A DNA stretch of 64,000 nucleotides from Leptonemataceae bacterium (GTDB lineage Bacteria; Spirochaetota; Leptospiria; Leptospirales; Leptonemataceae), in the NCBI GenBank assembly GCA_965227295.1, contig OZ245742.1, positions 2,240,001 to 2,304,000 on the forward strand, given 5' to 3'. The notes below the pieces were generated by a model. It worked only from the letters and a program-made list of their open reading frames with translations, searched no databases and was not told where the DNA came from. Shown here one piece after another: positions 10,025 to 61,135 of the stretch. How positions within the stretch are numbered: the first letter of the stretch is position 1; the number at the start of each line of letters is the position of its first letter. Made by a program: the position numbers and the translations under genes.

Positions 10025-10136
10025 GGGCGTTCCGGACGGCGCCAGGCCCAGGCGCCGTCCGGCGGGCCACTCCGGGCTCCGCTTCGCTTCGGTCCTTCGG
10101 ACTCGCGCTACGCGCGACCCTGCGTGTCCCTAACGC
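10025..10136 (+). repeat. Structured multi-hairpin repeat element, intergenic copy
   Basis: gggcgtt...ccgggctccgcttcgcttcggt...accctgcg...ctaacgc, the same family as the copies at 39754, 42162, 45640 and 49573. Confidence 0.85.
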
Positions 10137-10185
10137 GAAGAAAAATCTTTTCTTCTTCTATCCTCGGTATCTCGGTCCTCGGAGT

Positions 10186-11097
10186 CTATTCATCCATCTC
10201 CAATGACAAATCCAAAAACCGCGTCGTATGCGTGAGATAGCCCATGCTCACACCGAGTTTGCCGAGGCCGTGCAGTTCCGAAAGTTGTTCCGGTTTCCAG
10301 CCGCCGCTGACCTCGATGAACGGCGCGCGTTTGCCCCGGGCGGTGGCCTGTTGCACCAGTTTGACGGCCTCGCCCACCTGCTGCGCGTTCATATTGTCCA
10401 GCAGCACCACCTCCGGTTCCAGTTCCAGCGCTTCTTTGAGTTGCTCCAGTCGATCCACTTCGACGTCCAGCGGCAGGCCGGGTTTGTGTTCGCGAATGCG
10501 CCGGATGGCCGCGCTTACGCTGCCTGCCGCGGCGACGTGATTGTCCTTGATCATGGCCATGTCGCTCAAATGAATGCGATGGTTCGTGCCGCCGCCGCAG
10601 TAGACCGCGTACTTCGCCAGGCGGCGATAACCGGGCAGGGTCTTGCGCGTATCCAGCACGGCAATGTCCGCGCCGGCCCGGGAGACCGCGGCGGCCGTGC
10701 TGGTGCTGATGCCGCTCAAATATTGTAAAAAGTTCAACATGGGCCGTTCGAGGCGCAGGATGGCGCGCAGGGTGCCGGAGAGTTCCAGCAGGGCGTCGCC
10801 TCTGTCAAAGGTCTCGCCGTCGTTCCGGTGTGGTTGGATCTTCGGAGCCTCCGTCCCCGTGGTTTCCGCGTAGACCGCGCAGAGGCTGTCCACGACGGGA
10901 AGACCGCAGAGCACGCCGGACTCTCGCGCGACGATGCGAGCGCTGCGCCGCTCGGACTCCGGAAAGACGGCCTCGGAGGTCGGATCGCCGTCGGGGGTGT
11001 CCTCGGCCAGGGCGAGGCGGACCAGAGGCTCGCAATCGGCCTGGCTCAGGCTGCGAACGGGTTGCGTGTAGTGCGGGCGAGGGTCCTCGGGAATCAT
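10186..11097 (-). CDS. nadC: Nicotinate-nucleotide pyrophosphorylase (carboxylating)
   Basis: ALAED..GD.T, LDTRKTLPG, NHRIHLSD.AMIKDNH, VEVD, LLDNM and EVSGG motifs. Confidence 0.93.
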   Translation of the reverse strand: MIPEDPRPHYTQPVRSLSQADCEPLVRLALAEDTPDGDPTSEAVFPESERRSARIVARESGVLCGLPVVDSLCAVYAETTGTEAPKIQPHRNDGETFDRGDALLELSGTLRAILRLERPMLNFLQYLSGISTSTAAAVSRAGADIAVLDTRKTLPGYRRLAKYAVYCGGGTNHRIHLSDMAMIKDNHVAAAGSVSAAIRRIREHKPGLPLDVEVDRLEQLKEALELEPEVVLLDNMNAQQVGEAVKLVQQATARGKRAPFIEVSGGWKPEQLSELHGLGKLGVSMGYLTHTTRFLDLSLEMDE

Positions 11098-11224
11098 CGT
11101 AAATGTACTATATTTTTTGGTTGTGCGATTCTGCAAATCCTATACGCTTCGTATGAATGGGAGCAGACGCTCTCAGTAAAACACACACACTTGCTATTAC
11201 GCAACGTCAGCGGGGACACACATT

Positions 11225-11926
11225 ATGTCGGGTCGTTCACAGTTAATTCGGGCCAAATACGTGAAGGGCGAGGCAACCCTGGAGAAAATCCGGGAAGCCT
11301 GTCTGGAAGAGATCATCGCCTTCGGGTATCAGCGCACGAGCGTTTGCGAAATCGTACGTCGCGCGAACCTTACGCGGGGAGCCTTCTATAACTACTGGAC
11401 CTCGCTGGACGACTGCCTGGCCGATCTCATCTCCAACATTCGCGAACTTGTGCAAACCGACGAGGACGCTGTCGAGTTCAGCAAAACCATCGCCGACGAT
11501 CCTTCGGCCACCGTGCGAAAAATCCGCCTGGCGTTCTACAGCTTCGAAGAGAAGCAGTCTCGTTTTCTGCTGCTGCCCCTGGCGTTGTTGCAGGAAAAGA
11601 ACATCGCCAACGAAGAACTCAAGAACATTCTCCGCGACTATCTCATGCGCGTAAAGGGCGAATACGTCGAAGTCATCCAGGCGGATCAGGAAGCGGGCAT
11701 CATCGATCCGGAGCTGGAAGCCGACGTCCTGGCCGTAGCGCTCATGAACTTCTTCAAAGGTATCTTTGAAAAGAACGTGCTCGCCTTCGACGAATTTCGG
11801 GTGCCCATCCGCAAGGCCATGATGCTCTTCCTGGAAAGCTCTCTGTCCACGGACTATCTCAAGGACCACCCCATCCAGGACGTCTTCGAGTTGAAGCAGG
11901 ACACGCAGCCGGCCGCTCCGGCCTGA
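11225..11926 (+). CDS. TetR/AcrR-family transcriptional regulator
   Basis: N-terminal HTH GYQRTSVCEIVRRANLTRGAFYNYW. Confidence 0.85.
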   Translation: MSGRSQLIRAKYVKGEATLEKIREACLEEIIAFGYQRTSVCEIVRRANLTRGAFYNYWTSLDDCLADLISNIRELVQTDEDAVEFSKTIADDPSATVRKIRLAFYSFEEKQSRFLLLPLALLQEKNIANEELKNILRDYLMRVKGEYVEVIQADQEAGIIDPELEADVLAVALMNFFKGIFEKNVLAFDEFRVPIRKAMMLFLESSLSTDYLKDHPIQDVFELKQDTQPAAPA

Positions 11927-11930
11927 GCGA

Positions 11931-12368
11931 TCAGTAGCGTAGCGTGCTCGCGCGTTCCTGTGGAAGTTCGTCGAGTTGCGCTTCCACAAAGCGCCGTTGC
12001 CCGTCCGGCCGGCGCACAATCAGCTCCAGGGCATCGCCCGGCCGCATGGATCGGATGCGACGTTGCAGTCCGGTTCCGTCGTAGACCGGCTCACCGCCGG
12101 CCATGGTAATCACGTCGCCCACCTGCAGGCCGGCCCGCTCCGCCGGACTTTGCGGCAGGACTTCAATGACCCGCGCGCCCATGCCCCGGGCGTCACCGCT
12201 GACGTAGAGTATTCCCAGATAAGCCGGTCCGCGGCGCACGGGACTGTGCTCCACCGCAGGTTCGGCCGGCGGAGGCGCGCTCCGGCACGCGCCGGCGCAG
12301 AGCAATGCCGTGAGCAGGGCCGCTGCCAGGCCCGACCAGGGAAGAGATTTGTACGATGAGACGGCCAC
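11931..12368 (-). CDS. PDZ-domain lipoprotein
   Basis: Signal peptide with LCAGAC; YLGI...VIEVLPQSPAERAGLQVGDVI PDZ signature. Confidence 0.8.
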   Translation of the reverse strand: MAVSSYKSLPWSGLAAALLTALLCAGACRSAPPPAEPAVEHSPVRRGPAYLGILYVSGDARGMGARVIEVLPQSPAERAGLQVGDVITMAGGEPVYDGTGLQRRIRSMRPGDALELIVRRPDGQRRFVEAQLDELPQERASTLRY

Positions 12369-12447
12369 GAGTCGATCCTCCGGAAGACCGCGGTGCGTGC
12401 GGCCTGCTGGAGGTAGGATCGTCCGAACGGCCAGGGAGCTTTACGAC

Positions 12448-12702
12448 TCAGCGCCGCTGCGCGCGGGCTTTTTTCTTCTTTTTTGCGGCTTTCTTTTTGG
12501 CCGTTTTCTTTTTCGCGACGGCCGGTTTACGCTTCAGTGGTCGCCGGCGCGGCTTCGGCCAATTCTTGCGGTGGGCCTGGTCGGAAATGGCTTTCGGGGT
12601 AACGCCGTAGCGGGGTGCGATTTCCGCCGGCTCCGACCCGGATCGATAGGCCTTTTCGATCGCCTGTTTTTGTTGCGGGGTAAGATCTGCCCAGTATTTC
12701 AC
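12448..12702 (-). CDS. Small HTH protein with Lys/Ala-rich basic tail
   Basis: AYRSG...AEIAPRYGVTPKAISDQAHRKNW helix-turn-helix, then KKKTAKKKAAKKKKK; GTG start after GGAG. Confidence 0.6.
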   Translation of the reverse strand: MKYWADLTPQQKQAIEKAYRSGSEPAEIAPRYGVTPKAISDQAHRKNWPKPRRRPLKRKPAVAKKKTAKKKAAKKKKKARAQRR

Positions 12703-12893
12703 TTTCGCTTGCTCCGATGGTTCTTGTTTGTCGCTGGACCGCTAAGTTATAGTGCTTTGTGATTAGTTTATGTTGCGCTAACTAAATGTTAACAAAAAGC
12801 AATTCTTGACTGCGGATTTCACTTTCAGTAGACGAAAAATCCCTGCGTTCCCCGCGTTTTCGGCGGCGGAATTCCGCTGGAAATTCTACGGCC

Positions 12894-60055: not shown

Positions 60056-60098
60056 CGCAGATATATCTAAAAGATATATCTGCGCACTGGCGGGTCAA
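60056..60098 (-). promoter_or_regulatory. Candidate sigma70 promoter overlapped by a 13-3-13 inverted-repeat operator (probably PadR)
   Basis: cgcagatatatct-aaa-agatatatctgcg (60056-60084); TTGACC (60098-60093), 16 bp, TATCTT (60076-60071). Confidence 0.7.
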
Positions 60099-60101
60099 CA
60101 C

Positions 60102-60132
60102 AAAAAAATCCAGGCGGAGGCCGCCTGGATTT
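60102..60132 (-). terminator. Rho-independent terminator after the NlpC/P60 gene
   Basis: Minus strand aaatccaggcgg-cct-ccgcctggattttttt, a GC hairpin followed by a T-run. Confidence 0.8.
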
Positions 60133-60148
60133 CGGAGGAGTGTGGAGA

Positions 60149-60646
60149 TCAGCGCGCCGTGCGGGCGCCGCGAAAGCGATCCTGCCAGTAGGGCACGTCG
60201 AAGCGTTCCAGACGGACGGTGTCCCCGGACTTCGGGGCGTGGATGAACCAGCGTCCGCCGGTGTTCGGGGCGCCGGCCTGGTCCGCGTCGCCCAGGAAGA
60301 CGCCGACGTGGGTAATGCCGTCGGCCCCGGGATCGGCGGAGAAGAAGACCAGGTCCCCGCGGCGCGGCTCCCCGGGCACGATGGCCAGCCGATCGAACTG
60401 CTCGCCGGTGCTGCGCGGGATGCGCGTCCCGGCAATGCGATACGTATACATGGCAAAGCCGGAGCAGTCGAAGCCGCCCGGATCACTGCCGCCGTACAGG
60501 TACGGGCTGCCTTCGAATTCCCGGGCCAGCTCGGCCACGTCGGGCCGCGCCGGGGGGTAGTTTTCCCGGCCCTGGGCAAACGTAATCGCGACGACGCCGA
60601 ACGCCGTCAGAGTCGCGATCCAGAAGTGTTGGAACAAGGTCTTCAT
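60149..60646 (-). CDS. NlpC/P60 (C40) peptidase
   Basis: GSPYLYGG..PGGFDCSG, GDLVFF, THVGVF and FIHA; signal peptide. Confidence 0.9.
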   Translation of the reverse strand: MKTLFQHFWIATLTAFGVVAITFAQGRENYPPARPDVAELAREFEGSPYLYGGSDPGGFDCSGFAMYTYRIAGTRIPRSTGEQFDRLAIVPGEPRRGDLVFFSADPGADGITHVGVFLGDADQAGAPNTGGRWFIHAPKSGDTVRLERFDVPYWQDRFRGARTAR

Positions 60647-60847
60647 GCTCGCCTCCGTATGAGACGAGAGTTGCAACGGATGTACCTGGCGAAAAAACGG
60701 CGAAATTGGGTGATTTCTGTTTAGAAAGTGGAATGTTTTTATGTCAGAATGAAGTGATTTTAACTCAGTAGAATGGGTGCAGGACTTTTTGGGCGTCTGC
60801 CCCGCCGCGGTTGTAGGGGGGCACCGAAGGATCGCAATGGCTTCTTC

Positions 60848-60964
60848 GCGCCAGGGATTGGAAGGGTCGCGGCGCAGCCGCGAGTCCGGAGCGTAGCGGA
60901 GGACCGAAGCGCGTAGCGCGGAGCCCTGGAAAGCCCGGTCGCCGCCGAAGGCGGCGAGGCGCCC
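60848..60964 (-). repeat. Divergent copy of the structured repeat, reverse orientation
   Basis: Minus strand gggcgcc...agggctccgc...ttcggtcc...ggactcgcggc...gccgcgaccct...atccctggcgc. Confidence 0.75.
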
Positions 60965-61007
60965 AAAAAATTCATTTCAATTTCACCATGATTTTTAGTT
61001 AAGAGAT

Positions 61008-61135
61008 CGTTTGCCGTCGGCTGCGGTTTTAGCCACGGAGGGCTTTATGCTGCGGAGGCCAGGAGGGCCGAGAGCAGCACTCCGCGCCAGGCGCTCCGGA
61101 CTGGCGCTTCGCGCCACCCCTCCAATCGCTAACGC
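61008..61135 (+). repeat. Degenerate copy of the structured repeat
   Basis: 3' half ggactggcgc-ttc-gcgccaccc...atcgctaacgc matches the family. Confidence 0.55.

Follow-up and report, generated by a model that had tools for sequence, protein, structure and literature searches.

A Flavo-1-like repeat dispersed through a Leptonemataceae genome probably works as folded single-stranded DNA

The 64-kb window analysed here (contig OZ245742.1 of a Leptonemataceae bacterium, positions 2,240,001 to 2,304,000) holds a full-length polymorphic toxin gene, an array of orphan toxin cassettes and seven dispersed copies of a compact repeat with a branched fold, the subject of this work. A first-pass annotation of the window had marked seven places as an element of 120–140 bp acting as structured RNA or single-stranded DNA (ssDNA); all seven exist, as six full copies and one partial copy, and the full copies measure 112–124 nt (Table 1). 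A covariance model built from 44 copies finds all seven, four of which were training members. The copies at 39754, 42162 and 49573 are identical in sequence as a result of cassette duplication, leaving only four independent full copies. The 10025 copy is intergenic, with a nadC-like (QRPTase) gene on one side and a TPR gene on the other. The 60848 copy and the partial copy form a back-to-back inverted pair; the latter retains the 5′ half of the folding strand and lacks its CGCCC end, and its 61008-61085 stretch occurs twice more in the genome. Another candidate, GGGCTCCGC at 33061, lies within a DEAD-helicase gene and was rejected as a copy.

Table 1. Element copies and associated features of the 64-kb window. 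Copy limits run from GGGCG to the closing CGC on the strand read by the first-pass annotation; for copies, the strand given is the folding (GNA) strand. HMM, hidden Markov model; CM, covariance model.
Feature	Position	Length	Strand	Remarks
Full copy	10025..10136	112 nt	minus	102.5 bits (CM); in training set
Full copy	39754..39877	124 nt	minus	truncated toxin gene copy (39747-39490) starts 6 nt beyond CGCCC end
Full copy	42162..42285	124 nt	minus	orphan HINT/toxin-tip cassette homology from 7 nt past 3′ end (42154)
Full copy	45640..45760	121 nt	minus	orphan cassette homology from 4-6 nt past 3′ end
Full copy	49573..49696	124 nt	minus	orphan cassette homology from 7 nt past 3′ end (49565)
Full copy	60848..60964	117 nt	plus (opposite orientation)	110.9 bits (CM); in training set
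Diverged partial copy	61008..61137		minus	recognisable part 61089-61137; HMM E 7e-7; CM 27 bits
Orphan polymorphic-toxin cassette array	39490..50444		minus	PT-HINT with a variable tip and small genes of presumed immunity function; interrupted at intervals by four copies
Broken integrase-core transposase remnant (rve; IS481/IS3-like)	46045..46614		plus	5′ side of 45640 copy
Full-length polymorphic toxin gene	51012..56555	1847 aa	minus	PT-HINT, DUF6973 tip; orphans are its 3′ paralogues

Genome-wide, an HMM built from 148 copies found 209 places at E<=1e-5 and 233 at E<=0.05 in this genome (5.94 Mb, 93.55% complete; G000 below) and 0 in the reversed genome. This Flavo-1-like element is thus present in about 210–230 copies, a number not due to chance. 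By our own gene calls, from which unscored open reading frames (ORFs) overlapping copies had been removed beforehand, a step that favours the figure, 208/209 copies are intergenic. They occur in all four gene contexts, enriched in convergent gaps (p=4e-4) and depleted in divergent ones (p=6e-8), and between co-directional genes the folding strand is the mRNA strand in 77 cases versus 49 (p=0.016). Close inverted pairs hold 68 of the 209 copies and close direct pairs none; where a gene has a copy on either side, it is of a housekeeping-like kind. In a survey of 31 relatives that scored no more than 113 candidates in any genome, 23 have at least one match, and the two same-genus genomes (G001 and G002) have 2 matches each versus more than 200 in G000. 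The interval orthologous to the 10025 copy holds no model match in either of these two, and the G001 and G002 intervals that lack the element are too diverged (about 70%) for an exact empty site to be mapped.

Several arrangements of paired copies recur. Tail-to-tail pairs (e.g. G000 921881, 777686, 1514600 and 4838776) often have their 5′ ends separated by exactly 19 nt, made up of GAAGAG followed by a 13-nt imperfect palindrome; pairs inverted 3′-to-3′ have recurring AT-rich spacers of ~75 nt. The same chromosome carries CRISPR-like repeat arrays with a ~61-nt period at G000:C1:780300-785000.

The fold was resolved in 148 of 152 distinct full-length copies. The stabler and loop-coherent strand is the reverse of the one read in the first-pass annotation: it is the more stable in 142/142 distinct copies with DNA parameters and in 137/142 with RNA parameters, and we refer to it as the folding strand. 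From its 5′ end it runs through P1 (GCG-NN), a single A, P3 (GNG), an A-G pair, 2-3 bp, a 3x3 internal loop and P4, and it comes back through P4, the P3 return, a 1-2 nt linker, a side hairpin and P1 to two unpaired C and an A-rich tail. The outer domain is a three-way junction carrying the side hairpin. Beyond P4 lies a four-way junction, without unpaired bases in 143/148 copies, from which three GNA-capped hairpins emerge. The A-G pair is present in 147/148 copies, the internal loop reads GNA/GNA in 137/148, and the 3′ foot reads exactly CGCCC, two of its C being unpaired, in 171 of 182.

This architecture is maintained by matched mutations. The closing-stem and hairpin variants quoted in the first-pass annotation are present in the sequence, and its proposal that structure rather than sequence is conserved was borne out by a larger alignment of 44 sequences with very strong covariation: 95.5% of cells pair, 17 of 28 pairs vary on both sides, slid partners pair at 31-45%, and 0/500 shuffles reach the observed level. 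The parsed set had been pre-filtered for a good closing stem, which inflates its P1 figures and leaves the hairpin-loop and G-T counts unaffected; in a parse that made no demand on pairing, the P1 dinucleotides were complementary in 155/160 copies, with six pair types, and P3 likewise in 155/160. Arms that pair over a distance of 60-110 nt covary completely (normalised mutual information, MI, of 0.92-1.0). The outer and inner modules are almost independent of each other (MI about 0-0.13), and the 143 copies display 125 different combinations of modules. For studies of the fold, the ~150 copies that vary naturally within a single genome are equivalent to a mutational scan already made.

Is the working molecule RNA or DNA? 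The 572 terminal loops include 402 triloops; 362 are cGNAg, with all four N used, 19 are GNRA and 1 is UNCG. As a control, GNA occurred in 111/1612 random genomic triloops. The core helices contain 1918 Watson-Crick pairs and 1 G-T among 1924 pairs, and the hairpin stems 3558 Watson-Crick pairs versus 7 G-T, that is, 8 G-T in ~5,500 pairs overall. According to passages of PMC13037366, a review written by those who discovered such mini-hairpins, GNA alone among the 64 triloops gives extra-stable DNA mini-hairpins, the RNA counterparts being much less stable; such mini-hairpins resist exonucleases, are bound poorly by single-strand-binding protein (SSB) and are found at the G4, St-1 and alpha3 primase origins, at RSF1010 ssiA and at N4 promoters. 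GNA triloops together with the near-absence of G-T are a DNA signature, and since the fold is kept on one strand by matched mutations, we consider it likely, judging from sequence, that the element works as folded ssDNA. The evidence thus favours the second half of the alternative left open by the first-pass annotation.

The element had also been likened to the Flavo-1 motif, listed among probable RNAs by Weinberg et al. 2010 (PMC2864571, in the part consulted). This likeness holds for the outer half and the 3′ end and stops short of the Rfam cut-off: an Rfam scan of the window gave no match at the gathering threshold and none at E<=5, and the best score of the Flavo-1 model (RF01705) was 17 bits versus 42 for gathering among 150 of 384 candidates scored. 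The alignment published in PMC2864571 displays a P3 helix, an A-G pair, 2 bp and a GNA/GNA loop on the same strand as in our element, the shared outer half reading GCG-NN-A-GNG-A-YN, GNA/GNA loop, ..AGCCCG-RY; both motifs are multi-copy and intergenic. In the same alignment the distal part differs, Flavo-1 being one long hairpin with a second GNA loop and an AAUC/GAUU helix where our element has its four-way junction (143/148); our element is moreover GC-rich and read as DNA. Among the genomes of a related family, 19 of 61 have Flavo-1 matches above cut-off, and these, judged by eye, run on beyond the 76 nt of the model with the same side hairpin, P1 and CGCCC end. Conversely, the element's own model matched 3 of 10 true Flavo-1 loci at the same place and strand, weakly (10-14 bits, E 0.12-0.93). 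Because the outer half and the CGCCC end are shared and scores are low both ways, the element is, by sequence, a Flavo-1 relative with a different distal domain and not a member by score. In Flavobacterium, Flavo-1 matches show no preference among sense, antisense and untranscribed positions (PMC9723704, in the part consulted). In the literature that names Flavo-1, taken without the text description of the motif in the supplement of PMC2864571, we found no treatment of it as DNA.

In the toxin array and beyond it, the CGCCC end recurs as a joint. The homology of the orphan cassettes to the main toxin gene begins 4-7 nt past CGCCC, and they use two breakpoints in that gene, near 52900 and 52663. 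Genome-wide, mid-gene paralogues are found in 9/163 of the 3′ flanks versus 1/163 of the 5′ flanks, and all nine are pieces of large toxin-type genes in sense orientation that start 5-29 nt out. The rare copies of the two same-genus genomes likewise have a duplicated gene segment after them, at a distance of about 105 nt. Contigs from two runs compared with 38500-58000 contained short joints inside repeats only, not readable as excision. At least three orphan HINT-tip/immunity cassettes lie beside the toxin gene (39490-56555), and further toxin arrays occur at G000 ~512-530 kb, 2350-2382 kb and 5005-5026 kb. A non-coding segment of ~280 nt (window 45756-46035) with a perfect 26-nt palindrome is shared with six other toxin-array loci; it sits 5′ of toxin-associated copies, that at 45640 included, beside integrase-core remnants. 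At G000:C1:2363066, all that is left of the folding strand is its first five bases, fused directly to an orphan toxin fragment, which may represent a deletion or an aborted joint.

Similar joints appear elsewhere. In another family, displaced mreB 3′ fragments start 1-5 nt after the CCC of Flavo-1 copies behind mreB, with six breakpoints, and two Flavo-1 copies are followed by decayed 16S rRNA 3′ ends (identified by eye). In this related family (L159, L160, L183, L202, L205 and L206), a hot spot for island integration lies at the mreB 3′ end, where displaced fragments are stacked and toxin-antitoxin cargo and an IS91-family transposase are present. In G000, a group IIC intron occurs as two identical insertions with an identical reverse transcriptase (C1:2020597 and 2367840), which have entered two different copies of the element at the same bond, between G and CCC, on the folding strand, which at both places is the lagging-strand template; the intron is recently mobile. 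Class C introns target DNA stem-loop motifs (PMC4424553, in the part consulted). A clade of such introns specialised on the element was considered and rejected, as 0/76 related loci had a model match, and the dozen readable upstream flanks of the relatives were mostly terminator-like. Finally, a copy lies between the transposase stop codon and the right end of an IS5-family insertion sequence (IS) at 8/10 loci; at G000:C1:38226-39630 and nine other loci of this IS, a long structure variant precedes the right inverted repeat.

Relatives of the element also occur on phages and other mobile elements. A scan of viral contigs gave 299 loci that reduced to 60 distinct elements, with 2 on reversed controls; as presence follows from the construction of the scan, orientation alone is informative. 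On inovirus-like contigs, which have single copies, the folding strand is the coding strand in 8/8 cases. Next to a family of phage ORFs of 520-570 aa, terminase-like by eye and without a match in Pfam or PHROG, it is the template strand in 15/15, 14 of them within 90 nt of the match end, and where ArdC/DUF932 neighbours lie on the 5′ side it is again the template (4/4). In the related family, a clade of IS91-family transposases has the element directly upstream with the folding strand antisense at 8 of the 16 close loci (>=80% identity), 2 others holding remnants and 6 lacking it; more distant loci added 1 further match. The association with IS91 is not obligatory. Upstream of tnpA the element sits on the terIS side, and its folding strand corresponds to the bottom strand, the one displaced during rolling-circle transposition (PMC13181058, in the part consulted). 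A second IS91-like transposase clade (~390 aa; L167, L178, L181 and L185) has a different, attC-like inverted repeat family on both sides. BLAST against annotated phages and plasmids gave partial matches and no full-length one. There is a partial likeness to Streptomyces linear plasmid ends (H31, H33-H35); the single-stranded telomeres of such plasmids carry GNA-capped hairpins.

A HUH/Y1 enzyme co-occurring with the element, a search suggested at the outset, was not found in this 93.55%-complete genome: Y1_Tnp (PF01797) had 0 matches and Y2_Tnp nothing over cut-off. A weak Y2 match with stops (E 0.04) by a truncated copy at G000:2362843-2363100 gained no support from tblastn and was rejected. 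An integron integrase was not found either, the four tyrosine recombinases of the genome being XerC/D-like proteins and two phage-type enzymes.

What is the function of the fold? What links these observations is a DNA fold on one strand whose CGCCC foot is invariant and partly unpaired and marks the point where things begin or are joined. Elements of the single-strand initiation (ssi) and Frpo type serve for priming or for transcription start on single strands (PMC7690428, in the part consulted), and a DnaG primase that prefers 5′-CCC-3′ (also GCC and CGC) exists (PMC2532735, in the part consulted). We tentatively propose that the element may be an ssDNA initiation (priming) signal, an enlarged form of Flavo-1 amplified into a repeat of the REP (repetitive extragenic palindromic) kind. 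When the strand becomes single, through phage entry, conjugation, transformation, rolling-circle displacement or a lagging-strand gap, the folded DNA would stay clear of SSB. Host primase or RNA polymerase would, we infer, begin RNA at the CGCCC foot, reading toward the 5′ side; this RNA would prime the complementary strand and could transcribe the gene on the 5′ side. On an incoming linear strand, initiation could further set one duplex end a few bases beyond CGCCC, and homology-driven integration might then leave an intact gene with a new 3′ end, followed by cargo, the element and the displaced old 3′ fragment.

Several observations weigh against this proposal. In microviruses, the folding strand is coding in 3/13 and non-coding in 10/13. 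If the coding strand is the packaged strand, as in phiX174, ten of the 13 microvirus elements cannot be minus-strand origins. The inovirus set is equivalent to about four lineage pairs, with firm family hits for L401/L407 and L413/L442 only. On the chromosome there is no leading/lagging bias (108 vs 101; singles 74/141), and the lagging-strand template shows no excess of CCC (log2 -0.057, a weak test); neither a lagging-strand priming role there nor CCC as the replisome triplet gains support. Genes flanking copies are not lower in GC than other genes genome-wide. No sigma70 -10/-35 signal was detected on the other strand of the flank (22/158 vs 18.3 shuffled, p=0.21), and none is evident in the GC-rich stems of the inspected alignment. 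The nine toxin joints come from four loci, duplicates included, and random intergenic positions had mid-gene paralogues at about the same rate (53/800, in a control without strand or proximity filter). What counts in the argument from joints is thus their side, strand and closeness rather than how often they occur. The missing G-T pairs could reflect selection on both strands, or repair, and no mobilising enzyme was found in this genome. The model also gives no account of how solo copies multiplied. Our confidence is kept somewhat short of even because of the microvirus orientation, the absence of replichore bias and this unexplained amplification.

The main rival is a mobile end cut by a HUH enzyme: a non-autonomous ssDNA mobile element, REP/REPIN-like or of the IS91-end type, whose fold would be bound by an enzyme that cuts 3′ of CGCCC and moves the element, inverted pairs and adjacent DNA. 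Intergenic placement (208/209), convergent bias, inverted pairs and more than 200 copies versus 2 in each same-genus genome speak for it, as does the element at the terIS position in 8/16 close IS91-family loci; its fixed end facing a variable one resembles one-ended transposition as described in part of PMC13181058. Nevertheless we judge it unlikely, because neither Y1_Tnp nor Y2_Tnp rises over cut-off in this 93.55%-complete genome, the transposase occurs without the element in 6/16 loci and the element type is exchangeable, the same orientation is kept beside transposases of unrelated kinds (IS5 and rve), neither a target duplication nor a clean empty site was found, and single oriented copies on small phages are unexpected for a pure parasite. 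Alternatively, the fold could be a passive barrier that halts 3′-5′ exonucleases and excludes SSB, so that fragments end just past CGCCC with no dedicated protein. Mini-hairpins have the required resistance to exonucleases and poor SSB binding (PMC13037366, in the part consulted), and the joints do lie at variable distances, 1-29 nt past the end and about 105 nt in the two same-genus genomes. A barrier would, however, have no need for an invariant unpaired CC, an invariant A-G pair and single-A linker, or a four-way junction without gaps and with fixed junction pairs (143/148), features that look like protein contacts, and we find this reading improbable.

A structured RNA, either a small RNA or a 3′-UTR (untranslated region) stabilising element, would suit the first classification of Flavo-1 as a probable RNA (PMC2864571, in the part consulted). 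The folding strand is also the stabler one with RNA parameters (137/142) and is more often the mRNA strand (77 vs 49). Tandem G-A loops, too, occur in RNA as well as in DNA. Yet almost no G-U would be formed, the loops are GNA triloops and not GNRA or UNCG, all four gene contexts are used, the flank lacks a promoter, and Flavo-1 is indifferent to sense and antisense in Flavobacterium (PMC9723704, in the part consulted), all of which leaves an RNA role little probability. Could the element instead be an attC-like cassette recombination site at which a tyrosine recombinase shuffles toxin tips? Multistem attC-like motifs have been suggested before (PMC5737381, in the part consulted), and cassette punctuation, conserved structure with variable sequence, one favoured strand and use as a group IIC intron target all fit. 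This reading is largely disfavoured and, to us, very improbable: the four tyrosine recombinases include no integron integrase, the RYYYAAC..GTTRRRY order is absent, with the GTT/AAC positions varying over six dinucleotide pairs, the joints lie outside the element at variable positions in the target gene with no crossover inside the site, and most copies are solo or inverted, not direct.

Extending the initiation-signal proposal, Flavo-1 as a whole could be a cross-phylum family of branched-ssDNA signals whose CGCCC foot is read by a host replication protein. Such signals would be carried by ssDNA phages and by conjugative and rolling-circle elements for second-strand synthesis or early transcription, and on chromosomes would fix the end of captured DNA, thereby driving gene-end replacement in polymorphic-toxin tips and in islands behind mreB and 16S rRNA. 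We regard this wider scheme as possible and rather doubtful. Were it true, an orphan Rfam "RNA" would join the short list of natural ssDNA structures beyond the simple hairpin, filamentous phages and mobile elements would gain a candidate second-strand origin in hosts without a known one, and the rise of orphan toxin cassettes would have a concrete cause. New here are the pattern of joints that toxins, mreB and rRNA have in common at the 3′ end, the insertion of the intron, the link to IS91 and the finding that microvirus copies are of mixed orientation.

How does the element compare with known systems? Like the REP, BIME and REPIN sequences associated with RAYT, it has hundreds of extragenic copies, a convergent bias, inverted doublets and a lineage-specific expansion. 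Unlike them, its fold is far larger and branched, it has no GTAG-type foot, and no RAYT/Y1 gene was found. From integron attC sites, with their R and L boxes, it differs in being branched, in lacking both these boxes and an integrase, and in having its joints outside the site. It shares with attC the primacy of structure over sequence, a single active strand, cassette punctuation and the targeting by IIC introns (for the intron link, PMC4424553, in the part consulted). As with terIS and oriIS of IS91 and ISCR elements, it can precede a Y2 transposase, its folding strand being the one displaced, and combines a fixed end with variable host breakpoints (PMC13181058, in the part consulted). Unlike these ends, the element is not obligatory, the enzyme was not found in this genome, and the joints have no CTTG/GTTC-type tetranucleotide. 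Compared with ssi signals, among which the M13 minus origin belongs, it lacks the CTG triplet and -10/-35 boxes, the latter being absent from its flank and stems in contrast to Frpo-type promoters; it is present in hundreds of chromosomal copies, and 10 of 13 microvirus copies lie on the wrong strand. It nonetheless shares with the G4, St-1 and alpha3 origins, RSF1010 ssiA and Frpo a branched ssDNA fold with GNA/GNNA mini-hairpins on one strand (PMC13037366 and PMC7690428, each in the part consulted), and, like them, it is carried singly by ssDNA phages and found next to leading-region genes.

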